A stretch of DNA of 64,000 nt from a virus. The notes beneath the pieces are model-generated. The model was not told where the DNA came from. It saw only the letters and a program-made list of their open reading frames with translations, and searched no databases. Location: IMG/VR virus record IMGVR_UViG_3300042462_000689; one strand, 5' to 3'. The position numbers were made by a program, and so were the translations under genes. Shown one piece after another: positions 4,606-62,923 of this stretch; the first letter of the stretch is position 1, and each line of letters begins with the position of its first letter.

Positions 4606-6600
4606 ATGAAAACTCAAGAACTCAAACCCATCACAGGAACCGTCAGCAAGAAATTTATCGAGAAGGTCGATCGGTATTTCAACCACAGCAAGGAGACCAT
4701 CATCGTCGAACTCATCCAGAATGCCCGACGTGCCGGAGCCACGGAGATGCGCTGGACCATCGAGCCCGCCGGCCCTGAGCAATGCAGCATCACCGTCACC
4801 GACGACGGCTGCGGCGTCGAAGATCCGGCAGTGCTGCTCACACTCGGCGAATCAGGTTGGGATGCAGGCATTCAGACGGACGAGGATCCCGCCGGTGCCG
4901 GTTTCTTTTCGCTCTGTGGTCTGAGCGGGGCCGTGCATGTCTCCAGTCACAACTGGCGTATGACGCTCGACAAGGCCATCTTCACGCACGGGAAGGAGAC
5001 GCTCCCCTGCGCCACCAAGTCGCCCATCAAAGGCATGCGGCTGGAATTCATCACGAATGCGGAGAAGTCGGAATACTACGCGCACCATACCGCGGTAACT
5101 CGATGGATGGACGCTGTGGAGAAATGCTCCAAATACTGCGGGCTGAAAGTCAGCATCAACGATAAGCGCGTAAAGCAGGAGGATTTCCTGGCGGACGCAG
5201 AAGCGGTGGTGGAATGGAACGGTATCCGTATTGGGATTCACAATCGCCAGAAGCTGAGCGGCTATTCACTGGACCATGACGCGAACACCGCAAACTTCCA
5301 TGGCTGCGTGCTCGCCACACCCAAAATGCCCGAAGTCGGGGATTTCGGGAATGACGGCAAAAGCAAATATGCCGCAATCTTGGACATCCGGAACACCCAG
5401 CACATCAAGCTGGTCCTGCCGGCGCGCAACGGGATCTTACAGGATGCCAATTGGGAATTGCTCAAGACGCACATCGAGCGCCTGCTGGTCGAGCACGGAC
5501 TGAAGCGGCACGAAGGGAAACACCGGATGCCGTTTACGACGTATCAGCGCTTCAAGGCCATCGGCGTCGAATTGCCCGAGGCAGTGTCGTATTTGAAAGC
5601 AGTCTGCATCAAATGCCGTGACCATTATTCGGAACTGCAATACCCGGAGTTCGACAACGACATGGATCGTCGCGTGGATGTAAGGCATGGCCATCCGGTG
5701 CTGGTTCCCAATCTGGACGACAACGGGCTGAATCTGACGATGGCAATTGCCTTTGCGTGTAATTCGGTTTCTGTCACACCCGAGATTAAAGCTGAAGGTG
5801 GTTTCGATGTGGACGGTGCATTTGAACTACCCAAATTGGATGATTGCCTGAATATGCAATTCGTCCGCGCCAACGGCAATTTCAGCGGGTATTCCTGGTA
5901 TGACCGCCTGCCGTTCATCGAGGAGGACTCCGTGAAGTTCACGGTGAAGCAGGGCAAGCATGGAGTGTACACGAGCGAAGGCCAAAGCGACGCCCTGCAT
6001 ATGCCGCAGGGCCCGGATGAGCTGGCCTCGGAGATCCTGGTGGATTTCATCATCGAAAAGCCGGTGAGGGACAAGGGGATGGGCGAGAAGCGAGCACACA
6101 TCAATCTGCAACTGGAGACAGTGGCGTATTTCCGCACCGCCGACTGCTCGCATGTGGAGGACGGAAGCTGGGCATTTGCAAAGGCGTTACTCCCGGCGGA
6201 TAGCGGAGCCGAGGCGAACAATGCGCAGACCAAGGAGCGGGACATCCGCAGCCAGGCGGAGAACTGGATGTTGATTGCCTTCTGCGATCCACCGGATGAT
6301 TCGGATCATGAGGACAGCACCGCTGATGCGCAAAGCACCTGGACCTGCCGGAAAATGAAACAGGTGCTGCTGTCCCCGGAGAAGGCGTTTCAGGAGGCCA
6401 TTGAGGGTCAAGTTCGATCGCTGCTCAGCTCGGATGAATTCAATAAGGCCCGTCGCAAATCTGGAATCATCGGGTTGACTGTGGACTTCGAATATGGCGA
6501 TCAGCGTCCGGTCGGAGAGAAGCATTACAAATACTCAGAGAACAAGATGACGATTACGTTTCACAAGAAGGAAGCAACAACCATCAAAGGTAAATGCTGA
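4606..6600 (+). CDS. GHKL (HATPase_c) ATPase-domain protein
   Basis: ELIQNARRAGA (N box), DDGCG (G1), GESGWD, AGAGFFSL (G2) Bergerat-fold motifs; long unknown C-terminus. Confidence 0.8.
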   Translation: MKTQELKPITGTVSKKFIEKVDRYFNHSKETIIVELIQNARRAGATEMRWTIEPAGPEQCSITVTDDGCGVEDPAVLLTLGESGWDAGIQTDEDPAGAGFFSLCGLSGAVHVSSHNWRMTLDKAIFTHGKETLPCATKSPIKGMRLEFITNAEKSEYYAHHTAVTRWMDAVEKCSKYCGLKVSINDKRVKQEDFLADAEAVVEWNGIRIGIHNRQKLSGYSLDHDANTANFHGCVLATPKMPEVGDFGNDGKSKYAAILDIRNTQHIKLVLPARNGILQDANWELLKTHIERLLVEHGLKRHEGKHRMPFTTYQRFKAIGVELPEAVSYLKAVCIKCRDHYSELQYPEFDNDMDRRVDVRHGHPVLVPNLDDNGLNLTMAIAFACNSVSVTPEIKAEGGFDVDGAFELPKLDDCLNMQFVRANGNFSGYSWYDRLPFIEEDSVKFTVKQGKHGVYTSEGQSDALHMPQGPDELASEILVDFIIEKPVRDKGMGEKRAHINLQLETVAYFRTADCSHVEDGSWAFAKALLPADSGAEANNAQTKERDIRSQAENWMLIAFCDPPDDSDHEDSTADAQSTWTCRKMKQVLLSPEKAFQEAIEGQVRSLLSSDEFNKARRKSGIIGLTVDFEYGDQRPVGEKHYKYSENKMTITFHKKEATTIKGKC

Positions 6601-7022: not shown

Positions 7023-8105
7023 ATGCTGCGCGACATCATCTCAGACAAAAACCCATCTTTCCTCACGGTCATCGAACTCCCCGACTGGGTGAAACAGGCC
7101 GAGGTCATCTCCGACGACGAGGTGAAAAACCTGCACGCCTCCGCCTTTGCGGACCCGGTGCATCGGAAGCATCCCATGCATTCCAAGGTGGCGGCCTACA
7201 TGAGCGCCGTATATTTGGGAGCGCAGGGCGTGCCGGACACGGCCCCCGAGCTGCAGGCCGTCAAATCCGCCTCCGCAGTGTTTGGCATTGGTCATGAGGT
7301 CGCCGATATCCTCAGCAACCTGCGCGCGCAGGTCAAATCGGCCGCCGCCCCTGAATCGCTCCCGCGCTTTGCGCTGACGGTTAAGGTGGCGGCGGAAGAC
7401 AGCGAACCGACGGGCTTCTACCCGCTGACGTCCGCCGTGCAGATTCAGGACTCCGCGGTCCAATTGGTGAAGGACTTCAATTCCGGCACCGGTGAGCTGC
7501 CTGTGGATTGGTTCAAATCGGCCAGCGAGACCATCATGCGGGTCGCCCCGAGCTTCGGGCTGGCTGCCGATGAATTGCCCGCGGACGTGCGGGAAATGGC
7601 GGAACCTCGGGTGTTCGATCGCGACAAGGCGCTGGACCTCGTCGGGCATCGGAAGTTCGCCGGCGTCAGCGATGAATTGCTGGAGGTCTATCGGGACACG
7701 GTCAAATCCGCCGGTGCCGAAGGCGGCATCACAGTGGAGGAGGCCGTCTCGCTCATTGAAACCCTGGATCGCGCATCGGGAATCAAATACAGCACGGTGT
7801 TCGTGAATCCGTGGCGCATCTTCCACAGCGGCCCTTCGGTGGAAGCATTGAAGAAGGTGGCGTCGCAGTCGGTGTTCCTGGATCAGGTCATGATCCCAGC
7901 GATTCATTTCAGCACGCTCAATGAGGCGTCCGTGCGCTCGGCGCTGGGCAAGGAAACGGCGGACACGGTGATGCAGGCTGTGAAGCTGGCTTCTACCAAT
8001 CCCGGCGAGGCATCGGCGCTGCTGGCGCTGCTGCCAGCGGAGGTGCAGCGCGAGGTGCTTGTCGTGACACATACGACCCTGCGCGGCCTGTCCTCAGCGG
8101 CGTAA
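7023..8105 (+). CDS. putative virion protein rich in K-x-A motifs
   Basis: 360-aa ORF; 10 of 18 lysines are followed by x-Ala; virion role is inferred. Confidence 0.7.
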   Translation: MLRDIISDKNPSFLTVIELPDWVKQAEVISDDEVKNLHASAFADPVHRKHPMHSKVAAYMSAVYLGAQGVPDTAPELQAVKSASAVFGIGHEVADILSNLRAQVKSAAAPESLPRFALTVKVAAEDSEPTGFYPLTSAVQIQDSAVQLVKDFNSGTGELPVDWFKSASETIMRVAPSFGLAADELPADVREMAEPRVFDRDKALDLVGHRKFAGVSDELLEVYRDTVKSAGAEGGITVEEAVSLIETLDRASGIKYSTVFVNPWRIFHSGPSVEALKKVASQSVFLDQVMIPAIHFSTLNEASVRSALGKETADTVMQAVKLASTNPGEASALLALLPAEVQREVLVVTHTTLRGLSSAA

Positions 8106-52295: not shown

Positions 52296-52511
52296 ATGAC
52301 CAATGCGCAAGGAATGATAATGCGGCGGGTGATCGCGGAGGGCGGCTCCTCACAAATCCGGCGCGGGTTCAAGACAATGATCGAATGGGAGCAAGGCAGG
52401 AAGCTCTGTGATGAAGGGCTGTTGTCCATTGTCACGCTGGATGCCGCGCCCATGTGGTGGACGATCACGCCGGCGGGACGGAAAGCCTGCGAGGAATACG
52501 GATTGAGTTGA
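52296..52511 (+). CDS. small hypothetical protein
   Basis: 71 aa, followed by a terminator. Confidence 0.65.
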   Translation: MTNAQGMIMRRVIAEGGSSQIRRGFKTMIEWEQGRKLCDEGLLSIVTLDAAPMWWTITPAGRKACEEYGLS

Positions 52512-52516
52512 GATTT

Positions 52517-52549
52517 GAAGGAGGGGCGAACGGGCGCCCCTCCTTCTTT
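52517..52549 (+). terminator. intrinsic terminator
   Basis: Perfect 12-bp stem GAAGGAGGGGCG/CGCCCCTCCTTC followed by TTT. Confidence 0.7.
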
Positions 52550-52585
52550 ACCTGGCGCATCTTTTGGGTATGCTGGTGGACGCAA

Positions 52586-55500
52586 ATGCCAACGGACAAT
52601 TCACCAATCACCCTGCCCACCGGCGTCGTCCTGCGCGCCCCGGAGGATTTCGACACCCTGCGCACCAGCATTTACGACACCGCGAAGAAGGGCCTGGAAT
52701 CCTCCTTTCCGACGTCCTACAACGGCGTGCGCATGGAATTGAAGGACGTGCATTACGCCGATCCGGATGACTTCCCGCTGGATGTGCAAAAGCAGGCCAT
52801 GCTCACGGACAAATCCCTCGGCCGCCGGCTGCGGGGCTCCGTGCATCTCTACGATGACAATACCGGCGACCTGCTGGACAAGCGGGACATGACGCTGATG
52901 ACGGTGCCGCATATGACTGAGCGGGGCACGTTCGTGAACGCGGGCAGTGACTACGCGCATGTAAATCAGGCCAGGCTCTTGCACGGCGCCTACAGCCGCC
53001 GGATGCAGAATGGCAACCTGAGCACTTCCGTGAACGCCAAGACCGGCACCGGTCCCGCCTTCCAGGTCGAGTTCGAGCCGACGACGGCGCAATACCGGAT
53101 GCACATCCGCGGCAGCAATCTGCATCTCTATTCCCTGCTCCATGACATCGGCATCCCCGATGAGCAATTGGAGAAGACCTGGGGCCCTGAGCTGCTGGAT
53201 CGTAATCGAAAGAAATACGACGCGCGGGTCATTAGCAAAGCCTACGAGCATTTGGTCGCCCCCCGACACAAGCTGCCCGAGCACACACCCGAGGATCGCG
53301 TCAAAGCCATCCATACGGCATTGGACTCCGTGCGGGTGCACCGGGATGCCATCGGCAAAACGCTGCCGGTCCTGCTCGGCGGCAAATCAGCCACGGCATG
53401 GCGGGCGAAGATGAGCGTCCGGCAGGCCGACTTCGAAAAGGAAATCTTCGCCCCTTCAATTCCACCACATGAGGCAATGGGCATGGGATTTGAAATGGCG
53501 CACCCGGAGATCTTTTTTGAGGTCGCCGGGGATTGTGAAGTGCCGGTGTTTGAAAAGCTGGCCAGCGCCAAATCCGAATCCGAAGCCAAAGGCTTTGAAC
53601 CCGACCTGGATGCCGATGGTATGCGCGAGGCCTACAATGCCGTGTATGCCAAGGCAGGCCCGCGGCTGGCAGGCATGAAGCAATGGCCGAAGCACTGGTT
53701 TACGGACGAGGGCGATCCGCTCGGCTGGATTTCGTGGTATTGTCGATACGCCGATGGAGCGCGCGGTCCGGACGACGAGCGTCAAATCAACCGCTGGAAA
53801 TCCTTCAAGGCGCGCAGCGTGCCACGCTTCATCAAGAACCCCACAGCCCGGCAGGCATTTGCGCTGCGGTATTGGGCAATCGACCCGCTGCCGCTGATTA
53901 CGGATGCCGATGCACGGAAGCAATTGAAGGAGGACATGAAGGAGCACCAGGCGGCGGAGATGCGGAAGTTCTCGGAGCGGGCGTGTGATGATTATCCCAA
54001 ATTGGAGCGTGAGAAGGAGGCCAGTGTGTTGGCGGTTGGTGTTGTCCCTCCGCCCAGAGACCTACCCGAATGGCAACTCGGCCTCATCAAATACGCACGG
54101 GCAAATGCGCCCAAGGATCCGGAGAAGCCCAATCCTGAATACAAGGGATGCCTGATGGCCCGACTGCAATTGTCCGACGCGAAGAAGATCATCGAATGGG
54201 CCGAGGAGAACATCCCGGAAGATCAATTGGCGGAGGACGGATTTGAACGCGAAATTCACTGTACAGCCCTATTCGGGATCCATCAAAGCGTCACGAAGGA
54301 GCTGCTCGAATCCGCCGTGAAGGAAATCATGAAGGACGCCGGCGGTTCGCTGATCCTGCAATTGAAGGAGATCCATCGGTTTCCTGCCAGCGAGCATCGC
54401 AACAGCGACGTCATTGTCCTGAAGTGCGAGTCGCCGTGGCTGGAGGAATTGCACTACGGGCTGATCGAGAAGCTGGGGGACAAGGTGCAGGTCACGTATC
54501 CTGATTACACCCCACATGTCACCGTGGCATACGTTAAGCCCGGAGCATTGAAGCATCTCGATGACAGCCAGGTGTTCGATGGGCAATTGCTGCCGCTGAG
54601 TCCTTTGATTTACTCGATTGCGGATCGCACTGCGAAACATGAAATTGAGATGTTCGATTCCAAGATGGAAAAGGACGCAGCGGAAGTTCCAATGTTTGGG
54701 GATCAGCCGGCCCATGAGGTCGTCAGTCCCGGCGGGGCTCGCTCATCTCATCAATTCACGACCAGCAGCGGGTCTCGTTATATCATGGGCGAGGATGGTT
54801 CTTCCCGCAGAATTAAGTCCTTCCATGCCAACACAGGTGGGGCAGATGTAGGCTTGAAACCGTGGCAGGAGAACATCCGATTTGTAGACCCGAAGAATCC
54901 TCATTTTTCTACAGACGTCGGGCGACTTCAAGAGTTGGGGCATCACGTGCATCTGGCCCCAAGTGGCGAACAAATGGGTGTGAATATTTATGACCAGGCC
55001 GCGCAGAAGTGGAGGCCTGCTACTATTGCAGATGCGAGACCGAAGGCTGTCGCGGCCGGAATCCTCAAAGGCGGAGAGGCACCGCTGCGCGCGGGGATAT
55101 CGGCAATCCCACAGCCAGGATCGCACGTGCTGGAGTGGAACAATCATTCCGACGGGCGCCTAAAGAGCGTACACCCCGGCAGCCCGGTTGCACAGACGGA
55201 GTGGGCAAGGCCGCCTGCGGCGACCACAACCCCAGCCACCCCAGCCCCAGCGCCTGCGTCAGCCGCCGCCCCAGCCGCCGCCCCAGCCGCCGCCAATGCC
55301 GTCACGGCCACCAAAGCGGTAGCTCCAATTGCGCCAGCCGCCTCAGCCGCCCCAACCGGCCTCAAACCTCTTGCGGCTCTAAAGGGTACTGCTGGCGCTC
55401 TCGATGGGGGTGCGGTGAGGGCGGCAGGTCGGGCCTTGGGAACTGGTGTAAAGATTGTTGGTGCGGTTGCCAGGCCCTTGTCTGCCATCACCACAGTAAA

Positions 55501-56659
55501 TGACCTTTATCAATCAGCGACGAATCCTAGAGGTGCTGCAAAAGATTTTAATGACAATTGGAATAAGGCAGGCCCGATCGGCCGTACGCTGTCCGTGATC
55601 GGCAGTCCAATTGCAGCGCTGAATGCGCAGGCTGAGAATCACGAGGAGAATCGGGACCGGCTGCAAGACGCCCAACGTAGAAGCTCAATTCTTCCGATTC
55701 ATCCACCGGACCCGGTATTCCCTCGACCTACGCAGCAATCAGATCCAAGAGCATTAACCCCGAGACCCCGCCCAGCACCGACGCCAGCACCGACGCCAGC
55801 ACCGACGCCAGCCGTCCCCCCGGCACCCAAACCCACAACTCCGACCGGTTCTGGTTTTGTAGGGGCGCCACCCATTCCCAAACCTCCAGCGCCAGAACCC
55901 ATCATGGCCGGGGGTCTCAGCAAGACCACCACGCCGTCGATCGGCAAGATCGCCGCTGCCCAGCAAGGCTGGCCTCCAGTCGCTATACAGGAACTTCAGG
56001 CACGCTTCGCCGCTGACCAGAAAGCACGCGCGGGTGTCAATCCAACCACCATGACTGCAGAAGCCGCACAACAGACGGAATCGGGCATGGCGAAAACGGA
56101 TCGCGACAACACGGCATGGCTTCAATCCAACATCGGAAAATACGGCTGGCCCACTGGCGCCCCCGCGAATCAGGCTTGGTTGCTGGCACAGCATGCGGAT
56201 CACGATCCGAAGTTTCAGGCCGTCGTGTTGGAGAAGATGCAGGCTGTGTCGAAGAATCTCCAACATCCGGAGCATCTGTCCAACGTGGCGTATCTGACGG
56301 ACCGAGTGGCCGTGAATAATAAACAACCGCAGCTTTACGGCACGCAACTGAATCATCAGTGGGATCCCGTGAAAAACACATTTTCGAATCCGACACCGCA
56401 CCCAATTAGCGATGCCGCAAACTTGGATGCGCGACGTAAGTCCATGGGGATGGGACCGCACGTCGATTATTTGAAAACGCGTGCACCTGCCGCACCCGCC
56501 CCTACTCCCACGCCACAGCCCGCAGCACCGCCAGCTTCTGCACCGCCGCCGACACCCAGCGGGACAGTACCGAAAGCGCCCACCGCTCCCATGTCGTCAA
56601 TTAAGGGTGTGCCGGGTGCAGTAAAATCCGCAGCCGCAAATGCAGAGGATTCCAAATGA
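52586..56659 (+). CDS. multidomain polyprotein: RNAP beta N-terminal fragment, GWxxWYCRY domain, 2H phosphodiesterase, unknown domain and DUF6624-like domain
   Basis: LRGSV...MTVPHMTERGTFV...VNQ (RpoB region 1); HCT and HVT 2H motifs; YGWP...AWLLAQHAD...AYLTDR...QLYGTQ (DUF6624). Confidence 0.85.
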   Translation: MPTDNSPITLPTGVVLRAPEDFDTLRTSIYDTAKKGLESSFPTSYNGVRMELKDVHYADPDDFPLDVQKQAMLTDKSLGRRLRGSVHLYDDNTGDLLDKRDMTLMTVPHMTERGTFVNAGSDYAHVNQARLLHGAYSRRMQNGNLSTSVNAKTGTGPAFQVEFEPTTAQYRMHIRGSNLHLYSLLHDIGIPDEQLEKTWGPELLDRNRKKYDARVISKAYEHLVAPRHKLPEHTPEDRVKAIHTALDSVRVHRDAIGKTLPVLLGGKSATAWRAKMSVRQADFEKEIFAPSIPPHEAMGMGFEMAHPEIFFEVAGDCEVPVFEKLASAKSESEAKGFEPDLDADGMREAYNAVYAKAGPRLAGMKQWPKHWFTDEGDPLGWISWYCRYADGARGPDDERQINRWKSFKARSVPRFIKNPTARQAFALRYWAIDPLPLITDADARKQLKEDMKEHQAAEMRKFSERACDDYPKLEREKEASVLAVGVVPPPRDLPEWQLGLIKYARANAPKDPEKPNPEYKGCLMARLQLSDAKKIIEWAEENIPEDQLAEDGFEREIHCTALFGIHQSVTKELLESAVKEIMKDAGGSLILQLKEIHRFPASEHRNSDVIVLKCESPWLEELHYGLIEKLGDKVQVTYPDYTPHVTVAYVKPGALKHLDDSQVFDGQLLPLSPLIYSIADRTAKHEIEMFDSKMEKDAAEVPMFGDQPAHEVVSPGGARSSHQFTTSSGSRYIMGEDGSSRRIKSFHANTGGADVGLKPWQENIRFVDPKNPHFSTDVGRLQELGHHVHLAPSGEQMGVNIYDQAAQKWRPATIADARPKAVAAGILKGGEAPLRAGISAIPQPGSHVLEWNNHSDGRLKSVHPGSPVAQTEWARPPAATTTPATPAPAPASAAAPAAAPAAANAVTATKAVAPIAPAASAAPTGLKPLAALKGTAGALDGGAVRAAGRALGTGVKIVGAVARPLSAITTVNDLYQSATNPRGAAKDFNDNWNKAGPIGRTLSVIGSPIAALNAQAENHEENRDRLQDAQRRSSILPIHPPDPVFPRPTQQSDPRALTPRPRPAPTPAPTPAPTPAVPPAPKPTTPTGSGFVGAPPIPKPPAPEPIMAGGLSKTTTPSIGKIAAAQQGWPPVAIQELQARFAADQKARAGVNPTTMTAEAAQQTESGMAKTDRDNTAWLQSNIGKYGWPTGAPANQAWLLAQHADHDPKFQAVVLEKMQAVSKNLQHPEHLSNVAYLTDRVAVNNKQPQLYGTQLNHQWDPVKNTFSNPTPHPISDAANLDARRKSMGMGPHVDYLKTRAPAAPAPTPTPQPAAPPASAPPPTPSGTVPKAPTAPMSSIKGVPGAVKSAAANAEDSK

Positions 56660-57384
56660 TCTCAAAACGCGACCTCAATTCACTTTCCCGCAAGCGCAAC
56701 CAGCCCGTCAAAAGGGCGGCCTCGATAAAGCCGAAGCCCGCCCAGCCGGTCTCCCCGCAGGAACCGGAGGATCCAGACTACGTCCCATTTGGCGTGAAGG
56801 GTGTGCTGGGAGCCACGGAGCGCCTGCTGGCCGTCAGCCGCGGACTCGATGAACCTGACAACCGGGACAGCTACGGCTTCAAACGCATTTGGGGCGTGGA
56901 CAAACATCTCGGCGAACGCATCCGTCTCGATGCCGGCAAAATCCGCCGGCAGCAAATCCGCACGGCTGCCAAATTGCGATCCCTCAAGGGCACCCATCCA
57001 TTTGCTTTCGATACCTACACTCGTGGCCTGATTCTCGGAGATCCCGGCGAGGCCAATCCTCTCAGCTCGCCCCTGGAGGAAATCAATCCATTGCATTTGC
57101 TGGAGCAGGCGCGTCGCATTACGCAAATGGGGCCTGGGGGGATTCAGTCGTCGCAGGCGATAACGGCCGACGGACAGAACGTCTCGGCATCTCAATTCGG
57201 ATTTGTGTCCTCGATCGCTGGACCAGAATCAGAAAAGATCGGCATCGACGCCCGCCTCGCCCATGGAGTTCGAATTGGGTCCGACGGTCAATTGTATCAG
57301 CAGTTCAAAAATTCGCGGACCAAGCAATTGGAGTGGAAGACGCCCGGCGAGATTGAGCATCTTACAGTTCGCATCCCGGACTAA
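56656..57384 (+). CDS. rpoB: RNA polymerase beta subunit, middle (fork-loop) fragment
   Basis: EEINPL...RRITQMGPGGI...VSASQFGFV...PESEKIGI matches RpoB NPL...RR.SALGPGG...H..HYGR.CP.ETPEG..IG. Confidence 0.88.
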   Translation: MISKRDLNSLSRKRNQPVKRAASIKPKPAQPVSPQEPEDPDYVPFGVKGVLGATERLLAVSRGLDEPDNRDSYGFKRIWGVDKHLGERIRLDAGKIRRQQIRTAAKLRSLKGTHPFAFDTYTRGLILGDPGEANPLSSPLEEINPLHLLEQARRITQMGPGGIQSSQAITADGQNVSASQFGFVSSIAGPESEKIGIDARLAHGVRIGSDGQLYQQFKNSRTKQLEWKTPGEIEHLTVRIPD

Positions 57385-60188: not shown

Positions 60189-62042
60189 ATGCATTGTCCT
60201 GACATCGGCACGGAATTGGGATCGAAATTTGGGATGACCTTCAAGGGAGGGAAGGCCCAATTCGAGGATCCGTACATGATGGATGCGGCGCAGTATATGC
60301 CGCGCACGCTGGAGTCCGCTTTTGATTTCTGCGCGTTCCTTTACCATCTCAATCCCGCCTACAAACAGGCCAAGCATCGAATTGCCAGCTACTTCCTGGC
60401 GCCTGGCATTGAGTTCATCGGCGACAAGCACGGTGACAAAAAAGAGCAGGAGATGCTCACGGACATCCTGATCGATCAGGTGAACATCAAAGGGGAGTGC
60501 ACCATTGGTGGGATGGAATCGGCCGCCTACGGCAATACATTCTTCACACACTACAAACCATTTGACCGGATGCTCTATTTCCCGAAGGAGATGGAGAATC
60601 GAATTCCCGGCGAATGGCACGTCTCCATGTTCGAGGGCCTCGGTCCCGTCAAATATCTCTATAAGGAGATGATGTACGAGGTGATCGACCCGCGGGATGC
60701 AGGCAAGGCCATTGGCAAACGTCGCAAGGTCAGACTGGATTTCTACGACCGCGCCAGCAAGGACGTCAGCCGGTTCAAGCTCATCCGGGTTCCGGTGCAC
60801 GAGATGCATCTGGTCATCACCCCGATGCTGAACAACACGCGCTACGTGCGCAGGTTCTCGGAGCAAATCCGCCAGCAGATCACACAGGGCGACCCGTTCT
60901 ATTGCAACGACATGCCGATTGAGTTCCTGGAGGCGCTCTCGAAGAACGAGGATTTCCTGTACCACCCGGACCATATCTTCCACATGAAGTCTCCGACGAT
61001 CAATTGCCTGCGCAACTCGGCGTGGGGAATTCCGGAGACGCTGATCAATTACCGACAGCTGCATCATCTGCAGGTCATGCGTCGGATTGACGAGGCTGTG
61101 GCCCGCGACCGCGTGCTGCCATTGCGCATCATGGTTCCGAATCTTGCCGGGGCGGGAGACGTCATGCTGCAGGACATGCTCGGTTCCAATGTGCGCGGCG
61201 AGATCCGGGAGCTGATCGCCAATCATCGCCGCGACCCCTATGCGATTCATTCTTTGCCGTATCCGGTCTCCATGGTGCAGGCTGGCGGCGATGCCCAGGC
61301 GTTGGTGCAGAGTGCCAACATCGAGTATCACACCAACGCGCTGATGGATGCCATCGGCACCCCGGTGGAGCTGTATAAAGGCACCGTGGAGATTCAGAAC
61401 ATGCCATCGGCCTTCCGGTTGTTCGAGAGCCAGCATCAGTTCTATTATTATTCCTTCAACAAGGTGATTCGCTGGACGGCAGACGCCATTCAGGATGTGC
61501 GCGGTGCGGCGAGAATGCAGACCCGTCTCAGTCGTTCGCAAATGGCGGATCAATTGGAGGATCGCGGCATTTACATGCAGCTCATGGCTGGCGGTCAGAT
61601 TAGTTACGAGCGAGGGCTTGGGTCTGTGAATATCGAGGACCCTGTCGCAGAGAAAAAGAAGCGCGTGATGGAGGACATGGAAATCATGAAGATCACGGGA
61701 GATGCCCAGCGGGAATTTGAACTCCAGCAACAACAAGGCACTCTCCAAGACGCACCCCAGCAACCCGGAGCAACCCCCACAGCGGGATACGGCAATGCGC
61801 CTGGCGCTGGGGGCGCAGGCCCACAATCCACACCCATTGATGTCCAGAACAAAGCTCAGGAAATTGTGGAGCGTTGGAGAACGGCCCCTGACCAGGCGAC
61901 TAGGACGAAGGATATGGCTTCTGTGCGCGCCACGGATCCGGTGCTTGAGGGCTACTGCCAGCGGCTTTTCAAACAAGTCAAAGAACAAGGAGCATCGCAA
62001 GGGCGTGCCTCTGTGACACAGCCTCAGCAGCCCCAGCAGTAA
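60189..62042 (+). CDS. probable portal protein
   Basis: 617 aa; AAYGNTF, HMK...WGIP...EAVARDRVLP pattern and Gln/Pro-rich tail resembling large-phage portals. Confidence 0.65.
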   Translation: MHCPDIGTELGSKFGMTFKGGKAQFEDPYMMDAAQYMPRTLESAFDFCAFLYHLNPAYKQAKHRIASYFLAPGIEFIGDKHGDKKEQEMLTDILIDQVNIKGECTIGGMESAAYGNTFFTHYKPFDRMLYFPKEMENRIPGEWHVSMFEGLGPVKYLYKEMMYEVIDPRDAGKAIGKRRKVRLDFYDRASKDVSRFKLIRVPVHEMHLVITPMLNNTRYVRRFSEQIRQQITQGDPFYCNDMPIEFLEALSKNEDFLYHPDHIFHMKSPTINCLRNSAWGIPETLINYRQLHHLQVMRRIDEAVARDRVLPLRIMVPNLAGAGDVMLQDMLGSNVRGEIRELIANHRRDPYAIHSLPYPVSMVQAGGDAQALVQSANIEYHTNALMDAIGTPVELYKGTVEIQNMPSAFRLFESQHQFYYYSFNKVIRWTADAIQDVRGAARMQTRLSRSQMADQLEDRGIYMQLMAGGQISYERGLGSVNIEDPVAEKKKRVMEDMEIMKITGDAQREFELQQQQGTLQDAPQQPGATPTAGYGNAPGAGGAGPQSTPIDVQNKAQEIVERWRTAPDQATRTKDMASVRATDPVLEGYCQRLFKQVKEQGASQGRASVTQPQQPQQ

Positions 62043-62047
62043 ATCAA

Positions 62048-62923
62048 ATGCGTGAAGTCAATTTGCAGTTCCTGAATAATTTGGATAATCCGAAAAAGGA
62101 GAGCCCCTCTGAAATGCGCATGCCCATTTTTCGAATGCACGGTTTGACTGGAGTGTATTGCGCAATTCATCGCGAAACCGGAATGTGTTATGTGGGGAGT
62201 GCTTCAGTCAGCATTCAACGGCGGTACACGGCGCACCTGAGGCAAGCTAGGTGTGGGAGTAAAACTGCGTTTCACTCGGCAATTAGAAAATACGGAGCGT
62301 CTGCGTGCGATTTCGAGGTGCTGCGTGAGTGTAAGCCCGCTGAGGTTTTGAAGTGGGAGACTTTTTATATCAAATTTCTGAATTCGGCTTCCGTGGAAGG
62401 CTTTAATACCGTGACCGAACCAGGAACCACCTTGCTCGGGTTCAAGAAAACGGAGGTCATGCGTTCACGTATCTCGCAGGCAAACAAAGGAAATGTTTTC
62501 TCGGCGGAGAGTCGCGAGAACATGTCCAAGGCTAAAAAAGGAAGGCCTATTGCGCCAGAGGTAATGGTGCAAAGGTTAGAGTACTACAAGACACATCCGA
62601 CATCCACAGAGACCAGAGCAAAGATATCCAAAGCAGTGAAAGGAAGGAAGGCTTCTCCAGAAACCATTGTTAAGATAGCGGCTGCAGCACGAGGGAGGAC
62701 GTGGTCAGAAGCGGCAAGAAAGCAGATGTCCGCTACACGAACGGGTAGAAAGGCGTCCGACGAGACCCGTAATAAAATGTCCCAATCGAAAAAAGGAAAA
62801 CCCAAGTCTGAGGAGACCAAACGGCGCATGGTCTTGGCGTGGCAAATACGCAAACAGAAGAAAGCCGAAATGAAGGCAGCGCAGGAATTGGCAAACGCCC
62901 CGGAAACGAGCTATACTTCCTGA
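62048..62923 (+). CDS. GIY-YIG homing endonuclease with NUMOD3-like repeats
   Basis: GVYCAI...CYVGS, R...H, WETFYI, GFN; repeated S.E(T/S)R.K(M/I)S.(A/S).KG. Confidence 0.85.
   Translation: MREVNLQFLNNLDNPKKESPSEMRMPIFRMHGLTGVYCAIHRETGMCYVGSASVSIQRRYTAHLRQARCGSKTAFHSAIRKYGASACDFEVLRECKPAEVLKWETFYIKFLNSASVEGFNTVTEPGTTLLGFKKTEVMRSRISQANKGNVFSAESRENMSKAKKGRPIAPEVMVQRLEYYKTHPTSTETRAKISKAVKGRKASPETIVKIAAAARGRTWSEAARKQMSATRTGRKASDETRNKMSQSKKGKPKSEETKRRMVLAWQIRKQKKAEMKAAQELANAPETSYTS

Follow-up and report, generated by a model that had tools for sequence, protein, structure and literature searches.

What is a fragment of an RNA polymerase doing at the head of a chain of about 1100 foreign residues? 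We address this question for P0002, a protein of 1357 residues encoded in a 64,000-nucleotide stretch of virus DNA (the window; IMG/VR record IMGVR_UViG_3300042462_000689), which corresponds to bases 50521-114520 of a complete, terminally repeated phage genome of 185,656 bp. Judged from its sequence, P0002 is best read as a phage polyvalent protein headed by a piece of a multisubunit RNA polymerase (RNAP). We favour, with a probability of roughly 0.58, the reading that P0002 is a precursor which enters the capsid with the polymerase and which the maturation protease cuts into the polymerase piece and free effectors.

Insertion into a split RNA polymerase beta subunit

The N-terminal module of P0002, beta-N, is 37% identical to the beta-beta' protein P0005 (E 3e-40) and 27% identical to the beta protein gp206 of Salmonella phage Arash, with which it is collinear by tblastn. 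A profile built from six beta-N sequences matches the N-termini of bacterial RpoB (beta residues about 30-260) with E 2e-10, and the same profile matches E. coli beta 54-229 with E 0.025. The RpoB region-1-like domain that the original prediction had placed at the start of the gene is therefore real. The Arash protein annotated as beta (gp206, 1525 residues) also covers the N-terminal region of beta'.

Five codons after the end of beta-N, the alignment to gp206 resumes in the next gene, beta-mid. Since beta-mid continues gp206 at this point, residues 267-1357 of P0002, together with a 41-residue leader of beta-mid that is absent from Arash beta, are an insertion into beta. The leader holds the sequence V-K19-R-A-A-S (56710-56718), and a beta-mid orthologue of 49% identity has G-K-T-A-A-V in its own leader.

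Mapping of the proteins onto Arash shows that beta is split into beta-N, beta-mid and two further pieces elsewhere in the genome. Rpb2_6 is found at genome 131503-133407, and the beta' pieces carry Rpb1_1, Rpb1_2 and Rpb1_5. As the remaining parts of beta are encoded elsewhere, a whole enzyme could form. The complete genome contains a single RNAP set and a sigma-like gene. We also considered the extra length of the other RNAP genes as cargo and rejected it, because the extra sequence in the beta' genes consists of inteins; thus only beta-N carries cargo.

These inteins, present in both beta' pieces (genome 162107-165493 and 1698-4754; L014, L007), contain LAGLIDADG endonucleases. In the sole IMG/VR relative, the beta-N gene (L016, 10001-12124) is broken at about residue 145 by an intein-like start (C-F-H-H-K-V-K-V-L...). 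The beta-mid gene encodes 605 residues rather than 242 in the close relative L017 (14862-16679), owing to a 1.1-kb insertion at window positions ~57209-57229, and 242 residues in the relative L018.

P0002 lies within a long frame at 52454-56659 (+). We place its start at the ATG at 52586, because a hairpin followed by a U-run (Table 1) precedes this codon within the frame, 40 nt upstream. The hairpin is probably the terminator of the upstream unit; a consensus scan did not have it among the elements listed. Independent gene callers picked the same start on at least 15 independent contigs, which come from JGI and SRA samples and all encode the identical 1357-residue protein. The fusion is therefore not a misassembly, an outcome that the original prediction had named as one that would undo it.

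Proteins headed by beta-N form 33 clusters which are less than 50% identical to each other, range from 438 to 1540 residues and differ in their cargo, so that a constant RpoB N-terminus with variable cargo, as had been anticipated, is what the orthologues display. Dozens of clusters that share less than 50% identity with one another have the order beta-N, X2, 2H. The orthologues differ in whether they have 2H, InPase and other modules and in how these are arranged. InPase (PF18823) is present in P0012, P0013, P0014, P0019 and P0021. The search of IMG/VR returned one beta-N relative only, and megablast against the phage collection found no related DNA.

K-x-A-[A/S] at module edges and in head-module proteins

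The second feature of P0002 is a short motif that separates its modules. The original prediction had reported K-x-A at most domain boundaries, and all its coordinates are correct, including those of the motif (K267 at 53384; EKLA at 53552, EKEA at 54011, EKDA at 54668, GKIA at 55943 and VKSA at 56621). Six sites indeed stand at module edges, but the motif is better written K-x-A-[A/S], with Thr in the last position once. In the predicted structure all six fall in 10-residue blocks whose mean predicted local distance difference test score (pLDDT) is under 70, at the edges of folded cores, so that the predicted domain boundaries and the motif agree. Three other K-x-A (at 69, 502 and 583), in which the next residue is not Ala, Ser or Thr, lie within beta-N, a modelled helix and the 2H core. 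At the first site, where P0002 reads K-S-A, the unsplit beta of Arash reads K-S-F.

The same distribution is observed across the 33 orthologues, where the motif density is 0.84 per 1000 residues in conserved domains and 8.98 outside them (Fisher p 3.6e-24). A site lies within -6 to +30 of the end of beta-N in 28 of the 33, and just before X2 in 26 of the 31 orthologues that contain this module. Outside the domains, 120 motifs were counted against 16.8±4.0 after shuffling within segments (z 26), whereas control motifs in the same shuffles gave z of about 2 or less, save KA.[AS] at 4.4; linker composition is thereby excluded as the cause of the interdomain enrichment. Two full-length beta proteins lack such a site. 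P0010, which is 51% identical to P0002, stops exactly where P0002 has E-K-D-A, and its site between X2 and 2H is shifted to another place in the same linker.

The motif is also enriched genome-wide: K-x-A-[AS] occurs 99 times, whereas shuffling within each protein gives 48.8±6.4 and a count as high as 99 in none of 500 rounds. Eight related control motifs, one of them the reversed motif, stay flat, with z at most 2.5. The excess resides in a few proteins, namely g011, g018, g019, g055, g123 and g131 (0 of 500 shuffles each), and the motif-rich g011, g015, g018 and g019 form a block at 10-22 kb of the genome. By tblastn or phmmer, g011, g015/g123 and g018 are homologous to gp218, gp221 and gp222 of Arash, all of which have been detected in Arash virions (PMC10585845). 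In Arash itself the motif clusters in gp220 (7 sites), gp223 (6) and gp225 (5), and gp222 has one site at K30.

Moreover, N-terminal leaders of 12-32 residues that end in the motif are found in g014, g015, g017, g018, g204 and beta-mid. A leader of the form MNPRLFGAYLST[IV]K[SY]A is common to three otherwise unrelated proteins encoded outside the window (genome 8374-10104, 14910-15422 and 172907-173647; L007, L015), and resembles a T4-type capsid-targeting leader. The consensus of the motif has Val before Lys and Ala or Ser after Ala. The presence of the motif in head-module proteins and at the end of N-terminal leaders is the pattern that would be expected of substrates of a capsid maturation protease.

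Several side observations concern these proteins. Two of the three proteins with the MNPRLFGAYLST leader also end in INPRIFGA[LM][IL]AQL just past a K-rich motif. The g055 gene, at 7023-8105 of the window, encodes a 360-residue protein that has seven K-x-A-[AS] sites and matches no family. This is probably an internal head protein or a scaffold-like one, which would be cut into pieces; the neighbour of g055 at 4606-6600 gives weak matches to GHKL/MutL-type ATPases and is unlike a portal. The Arash proteins gp220, gp223 and gp225 are small structural proteins encoded just upstream of the major capsid gene (OQ632216.1, 145213-150170), and their 5-7 copies of [EV]-K-x-A-[AS] often occur in ELEKAAAV or ELVKEAS repeats.

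Cargo modules and their exchange

The features of P0002 and its surroundings are collected in Table 1. The modules of the original prediction are arranged as it described them, but residues 270-323 are a poorly ordered spacer rather than a domain, and residues 876-1120 are predicted to be disordered. In the structure prediction pLDDT falls below 50 at residues 471-490, 701-720, 876-1125 and 1295-1357.

Table 1 Features of the P0002 locus (window positions; residues are those of P0002 unless stated otherwise).
Feature	Position	Strand	Remarks
Hairpin, 12-bp, GC-rich, then U-run UUCUUU	52517..52546	+	-26 kcal/mol, z -3.5
P0002, putative beta-N-headed polyvalent protein, 1357 aa	52586..56659	+	stop overlaps start of next gene (ATGA)
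beta-N, residues 1-266, N-terminal piece of multisubunit RNAP beta	52586..53383	+	roughly E. coli beta 54-229
Site 1, K267-S-A then T	53384..53392	+	directly after end of beta homology
X1, residues 270-323, poorly ordered helical spacer between two sites	53393..53554	+	block pLDDT 43-70; conserved in P0010
Site 2, K324-L-A then S	53555..53563	+	just before X2 core
X2, residues 327-476, helical domain	53564..54013	+	pLDDT 80-98; large phage family without Pfam model
Site 3, K477-E-A then S	54014..54022	+	start of linker with pLDDT under 50
Linker and putative Acb1-like 2H phosphodiesterase, residues 480-695	54023..54670	+	core 521-690 (54146-54655), pLDDT above 90
Site 4, K696-D-A then A	54671..54679	+	P0010 ends here; P0003-phage homology breaks at 54683
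X3, residues 699-875, beta-rich domain	54680..55210	+	pLDDT 70-90; no Pfam model
Pro/Ala-rich region, residues 876-1120, predicted disordered, two low-confidence helices	55211..55945	+	sequence, structure prediction
Site 5, K1121-I-A then A-A	55946..55954	+	E-K-Y-A-A-A in P0003 and P0004; P0003-phage homology resumes 55951
DUF6624 (PF20329), residues 1124-1300	55955..56485	+	Pfam 46.4 bits vs cut-off 27, residues 1134-1297
Pro/Ala-rich disordered tail, residues 1301-1346	56486..56623	+	sequence, structure prediction
Site 6, K1347-S-A then A-A	56624..56632	+	P0003-phage homology resumes 56623
Last eight residues AANAEDSK, after site 6	56633..56656	+	translation
beta-mid, next gene, 242 aa, Rpb2 domain 3 (Rpb2_3)	56656..57384	+	continues Arash beta

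The 2H phosphodiesterase that had been proposed is upheld by Pfam matches to Acb1 (score 27.3, cut-off 27) and 2_5_RNA_ligase2 at residues 530-650 and by both HxT motifs, H558-C-T and H644-V-T, which are intact and invariant in the orthologue alignment. Its model superimposes on Acb1 7t27 (VIA Z 13.2, root-mean-square deviation 2.9 over 136 residues) and on viral cyclic GMP-AMP phosphodiesterases, with a Foldseek TM of 0.73 to 7t26, and fits generic 2',3'-cyclic phosphodiesterases equally well (drCPDase, Z 15.0). We regard the module as a putative Acb1-like phosphodiesterase, whose substrate may be a cyclic oligonucleotide. The DUF6624-like domain of the original prediction scores above the Pfam cut-off.

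The modules X2 and X3, described earlier as a 'GWISWYCRY' domain and an 'unknown domain', proved to be real and widespread families without a Pfam model. A HMMER scan with residues 270-1120, by which both were defined as large phage domain families, gave 1994 matches, of which 364 proteins reach E<=1e-10; the majority of the 150 best match X2. The conserved motifs of X2 are GW..WY..Y..GRR..DD.RQI.RW and ALRNWAIDP. X3 also occurs in giant proteins, and its homologue P0045 carries ART-PolyVal and MuF_C. A PDB profile search with X2 found nothing; Foldseek and VIA gave no informative match for X2 or X3 (model 1 was matched through its 2H domain alone, and model 2 by generic helical rows), in models of more than 400 residues each, with which a known fold could be missed. 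DUF6321, suggested for X2 by an ESM Atlas lead (0.77), was rejected because it is absent from the Pfam scans of P0002 and of nine stand-alone X2 proteins. When residues 699-1357 were searched for short homologues, Pro/Ala words swamped the output and one fragment was returned.

Across its family (P0018-P0148), X2 is a helical domain of ~110 residues in which W, Y, G-R-R, D-D, Q-I-x-R-W and W-A-I-D-P are near-invariant. It is found alone, at either end or internally in proteins of up to 2011 residues, and several stand-alone X2 proteins bear a leader ending in K-x-A-[AS].

Close relatives give a view of how the cargo is exchanged. P0003 is 96% identical to P0002 over residues 1-699 and unrelated beyond, where it has two HExxH modules. 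At about 92% DNA identity, homology with the phage that encodes P0003 stops at 54683, resumes at 55951, stops again at 56168 and resumes at 56623, so that three of the four cassette junctions (54683, 55951 and 56623) are on K-x-A codons. As each module is bounded by a putative cut site, whole modules would be exchangeable by recombination without harm to the essential beta-N, and the mosaic between these close relatives, as read from their sequences, shows exactly this. The DNA matching the last codons of P0002 sits in the intergenic spacer 3' of P0003.

The HExxH motifs of the cargo variants (AHEVNHAAG, HEAGHAVH) lie at ~1112-1125 and ~1455-1465 of P0003 and at ~135-148 of P0004, and these modules may be zincin-like peptidases of the polyvalent-protein type; the Pfam scan of P0003 gave no metallopeptidase family at E <= 0.001. 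P0002 contains no HE..H and hence no embedded zincin-like metallopeptidase.

Two homing endonuclease genes were also noted. A GIY-YIG/NUMOD3 enzyme is encoded at window 62048-62923, directly 3' of a 617-residue open reading frame (60189-62042), and a similar one lies 3' of the gene for the C-terminal part of beta' (genome 4751-5905).

Putative packaging, rival explanations and known systems

According to the reading we favour, the P0002 precursor would be made beside beta-mid, probably by translational coupling, as the two genes overlap in ATGA. It would then enter the procapsid together with RNAP, as suggested by the virion proteomics of Arash, in which beta has the top spectral count (3516, versus 1333 for the major capsid protein; PMC10585845). 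There the capsid maturation protease would cut at K-x-A-[A/S], most likely after Ala. Herpesvirus assemblins, which share their fold with phage prohead proteases, cut (V/L)-x-A-S between Ala and Ser, and this analogy suggests cleavage after the Ala of K-x-A. Cutting would free mature beta-N, which could assemble with the other beta and beta' pieces, as well as X2, 2H, X3 and DUF6624. The freed modules would exit the capsid with the DNA, the polymerase would transcribe the early genes, and the phosphodiesterase may break down alarm signals of the cyclic-nucleotide kind ahead of all phage gene expression.

The original prediction had likewise proposed a virion-packaged cargo cut by the head protease. 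The architecture, the motif at the boundaries, the variable cargo and the motif on head proteins partly support this, but no protease gene was found. Whole-genome searches with the Pfam families S77, S78, ClpP and S49 gave no match, and the S21 search, also without a match, is uninformative because its control matched nowhere either. Scans of about 25 head-module and neighbouring frames with PHROGs, Pfam and NCBIfam returned almost no matches and no protease, and phmmer with the major capsid and portal proteins of Arash found no counterpart in this genome.

Several points weigh against our reading. No maturation protease was recognised, in a genome where most structural genes match nothing and a divergent protease is possible, and P0002 itself shows no recognisable leader for capsid targeting. 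Taken alone, P0002 has 5 K-x-A-[AS] against 1.9 expected, a number reached by 20 of 500 shuffles (p about 0.04). X2, present in 31 of the 33 beta-N orthologues, resembles a fixed polymerase partner more than it does free cargo, and InPase and 2H could act in cis on the transcribing polymerase. The list of Arash virion proteins includes metabolic enzymes and may be contaminated (PMC10585845), and the phage is known from sequence alone.

Some of these points also suit a cytoplasmic cut of P0002 at K-x-A-[A/S], made by a protease of the phage or the host as ordinary polyprotein processing, in which case its modules would act late or throughout infection and be neither packaged nor injected. The failure to find a prohead protease gene in the genome searches would be natural in that case, as would the lack of a capsid-targeting leader, and the single RNAP set must serve late transcription too. 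On the other hand, the motif is concentrated in head-module homologues of Arash virion proteins, and in the short leaders at the N-termini of these homologues, a pattern characteristic of T4 and SPN3US capsid maturation (PMC10052503), and Arash beta is abundant in virions; we consider cytoplasmic processing unlikely. P0002 might instead remain uncut, with residues 267-1357 forming a permanent C-terminal appendage, similar to lineage-specific insertions, that tethers accessory enzymes (the 2H phosphodiesterase or, in relatives, a pyrophosphatase) to the transcribing polymerase and K-x-A-[A/S] serving as a docking or structural motif. The profile alignment places the insertion at about E. coli beta 230, around which bacterial beta subunits tolerate insertions and splits, and X2 is almost always found alongside beta-N. 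In addition, an HD phosphohydrolase forms one chain with a beta piece in AR9-like phages (PMC7824862), and InPase has been suggested to clear pyrophosphate for early transcription (Iyer et al., PMC5512222). A docking motif, however, would not be expected eight residues from a C-terminus or as 5-7 copies in small head-module proteins, and this motif is 10-fold commoner between domains than within them, drifts inside linkers, closes short N-terminal leaders on head proteins unrelated to one another and coincides with cassette junctions, which makes a permanent appendage quite improbable.

The source is a metagenome-derived record, and the fusion might in principle be an artefact of assembly or annotation, with a motif pattern due to compositional chance. 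Against this stand the presence of the identical protein in independent JGI and SRA samples, on at least 15 contigs, the recurrence of beta-N, X2 and 2H in the same order in dozens of divergent clusters, and the z of 26 against composition-preserving shuffles where controls reach 4.4 or less. We give this explanation next to no weight, as it is effectively refuted already.

The precursor reading places P0002 near several known systems. Polyvalent proteins, described by Iyer, Burroughs, Anand, de Souza and Aravind in 2017, are multidomain proteins of phages and conjugative elements which are predicted to be packaged, co-injected with the DNA and processed into units, and whose modules include 2H, InPase and N4-type virion RNAP (PMC5512222). 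P0002 resembles them in combining disparate domains (beta-N, X2, 2H, X3 and DUF6624) in one phage polypeptide, and shares their modules: 2H in P0002, InPase in orthologues and, in P0045, X3 alongside ART-PolyVal and MuF_C. It differs in that it is headed by a piece of multisubunit RNAP and not by a single-subunit N4 enzyme, a MuF or a portal protein, and in that it lacks the embedded HExxH metallopeptidase which is frequent, but not universal, among polyvalent proteins. Head-module proteins have the same K-x-A-[A/S] motif as the separators of P0002, and this sharing suggests a trans-acting protease.

In T4, the internal proteins and Alt have a capsid-targeting sequence that is cut by gp21, and the head and ejection proteins of phiKZ and SPN3US are cut by gp175 and gp245 (PMC10052503). 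As in these phages, a three-residue motif (P3-x-P1) recurs in head proteins, putative N-terminal propeptides measure about 12-30 residues, small internal proteins have multiple copies of the motif, and a virion RNAP would sit inside the head. The preference for Val at P4 and Ser at P1' is shared with SPN3US (PMC10052503). Their motifs, however, end in Glu ([L/I]-x-E, [A/S/G]-x-E), whereas here Ala would end the motif, with Lys at P3, and each of their cargo proteins has its own gene instead of following an RNAP piece in one chain. No gp21 homologue was detected in the genome search.

The 2H module has the same predicted fold and both HxT motifs of Acb1 and of viral 2H cyclic GMP-AMP phosphodiesterases. 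The known Acb1 proteins are small, stand-alone early proteins, while here the domain is one module of a 1357-residue protein, a putative precursor. The split multisubunit RNAPs of jumbo phages, among which the beta-C of AR9-like phages is fused to an HD phosphohydrolase (PMC7824862, PMC7598289), also have beta and beta' in pieces, one of them fused to an unrelated hydrolase. The present phage differs from them in its 186-kb genome, its single RNAP set, its sigma-like gene and its kinship to Arash rather than to phiKZ or AR9, and the appendage of P0002 is a variable chain of several modules.

Both the class of protein and the principle of packaged cargo processed by a protease are known. The original prediction had called the arrangement undescribed; polyvalent proteins were described in 2017 (PMC5512222), but a multisubunit-RNAP head and a K-x-A-[A/S] separator were not found described. 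A literature search returned no multisubunit-RNAP beta fragment heading a polyvalent protein, no K-x-A-[A/S] separator shared with head proteins and no pre-packaged Acb1-like module.

A broader view, which we put forward tentatively and at slightly less than even odds, is that a large phage clade with its own multisubunit RNAP has a capsid protease that cuts K-x-A-[A/S] after the first Ala, and a plug-in slot behind beta-N for pre-packaged, co-ejected counter-defence enzymes, with X2 as a new and widespread class of ejected protein. A module of any kind flanked by two such sites behind beta-N would ride into the capsid on the polymerase, be freed there and leave with it. The plug-in modules would then include Acb1-like phosphodiesterases, pyrophosphatases and metallopeptidases.

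Multisubunit RNAP beta tolerates a split at this point with ~1100 foreign residues attached. If the precursor reading is true, an enzyme of the type that counters CBASS (cyclic-oligonucleotide-based anti-phage signalling systems) would be delivered before any phage gene is expressed, riding on a protein that is packaged anyway. A new protease specificity would be legible in the sequence and would predict packaged and ejected proteins in a poorly annotated clade; the motif already singles out head-module proteins here and in the cultured phage Arash. The catalogue of swappable modules, including the two large unnamed families X2 and X3, would then become a set of candidate counter-defence activities.

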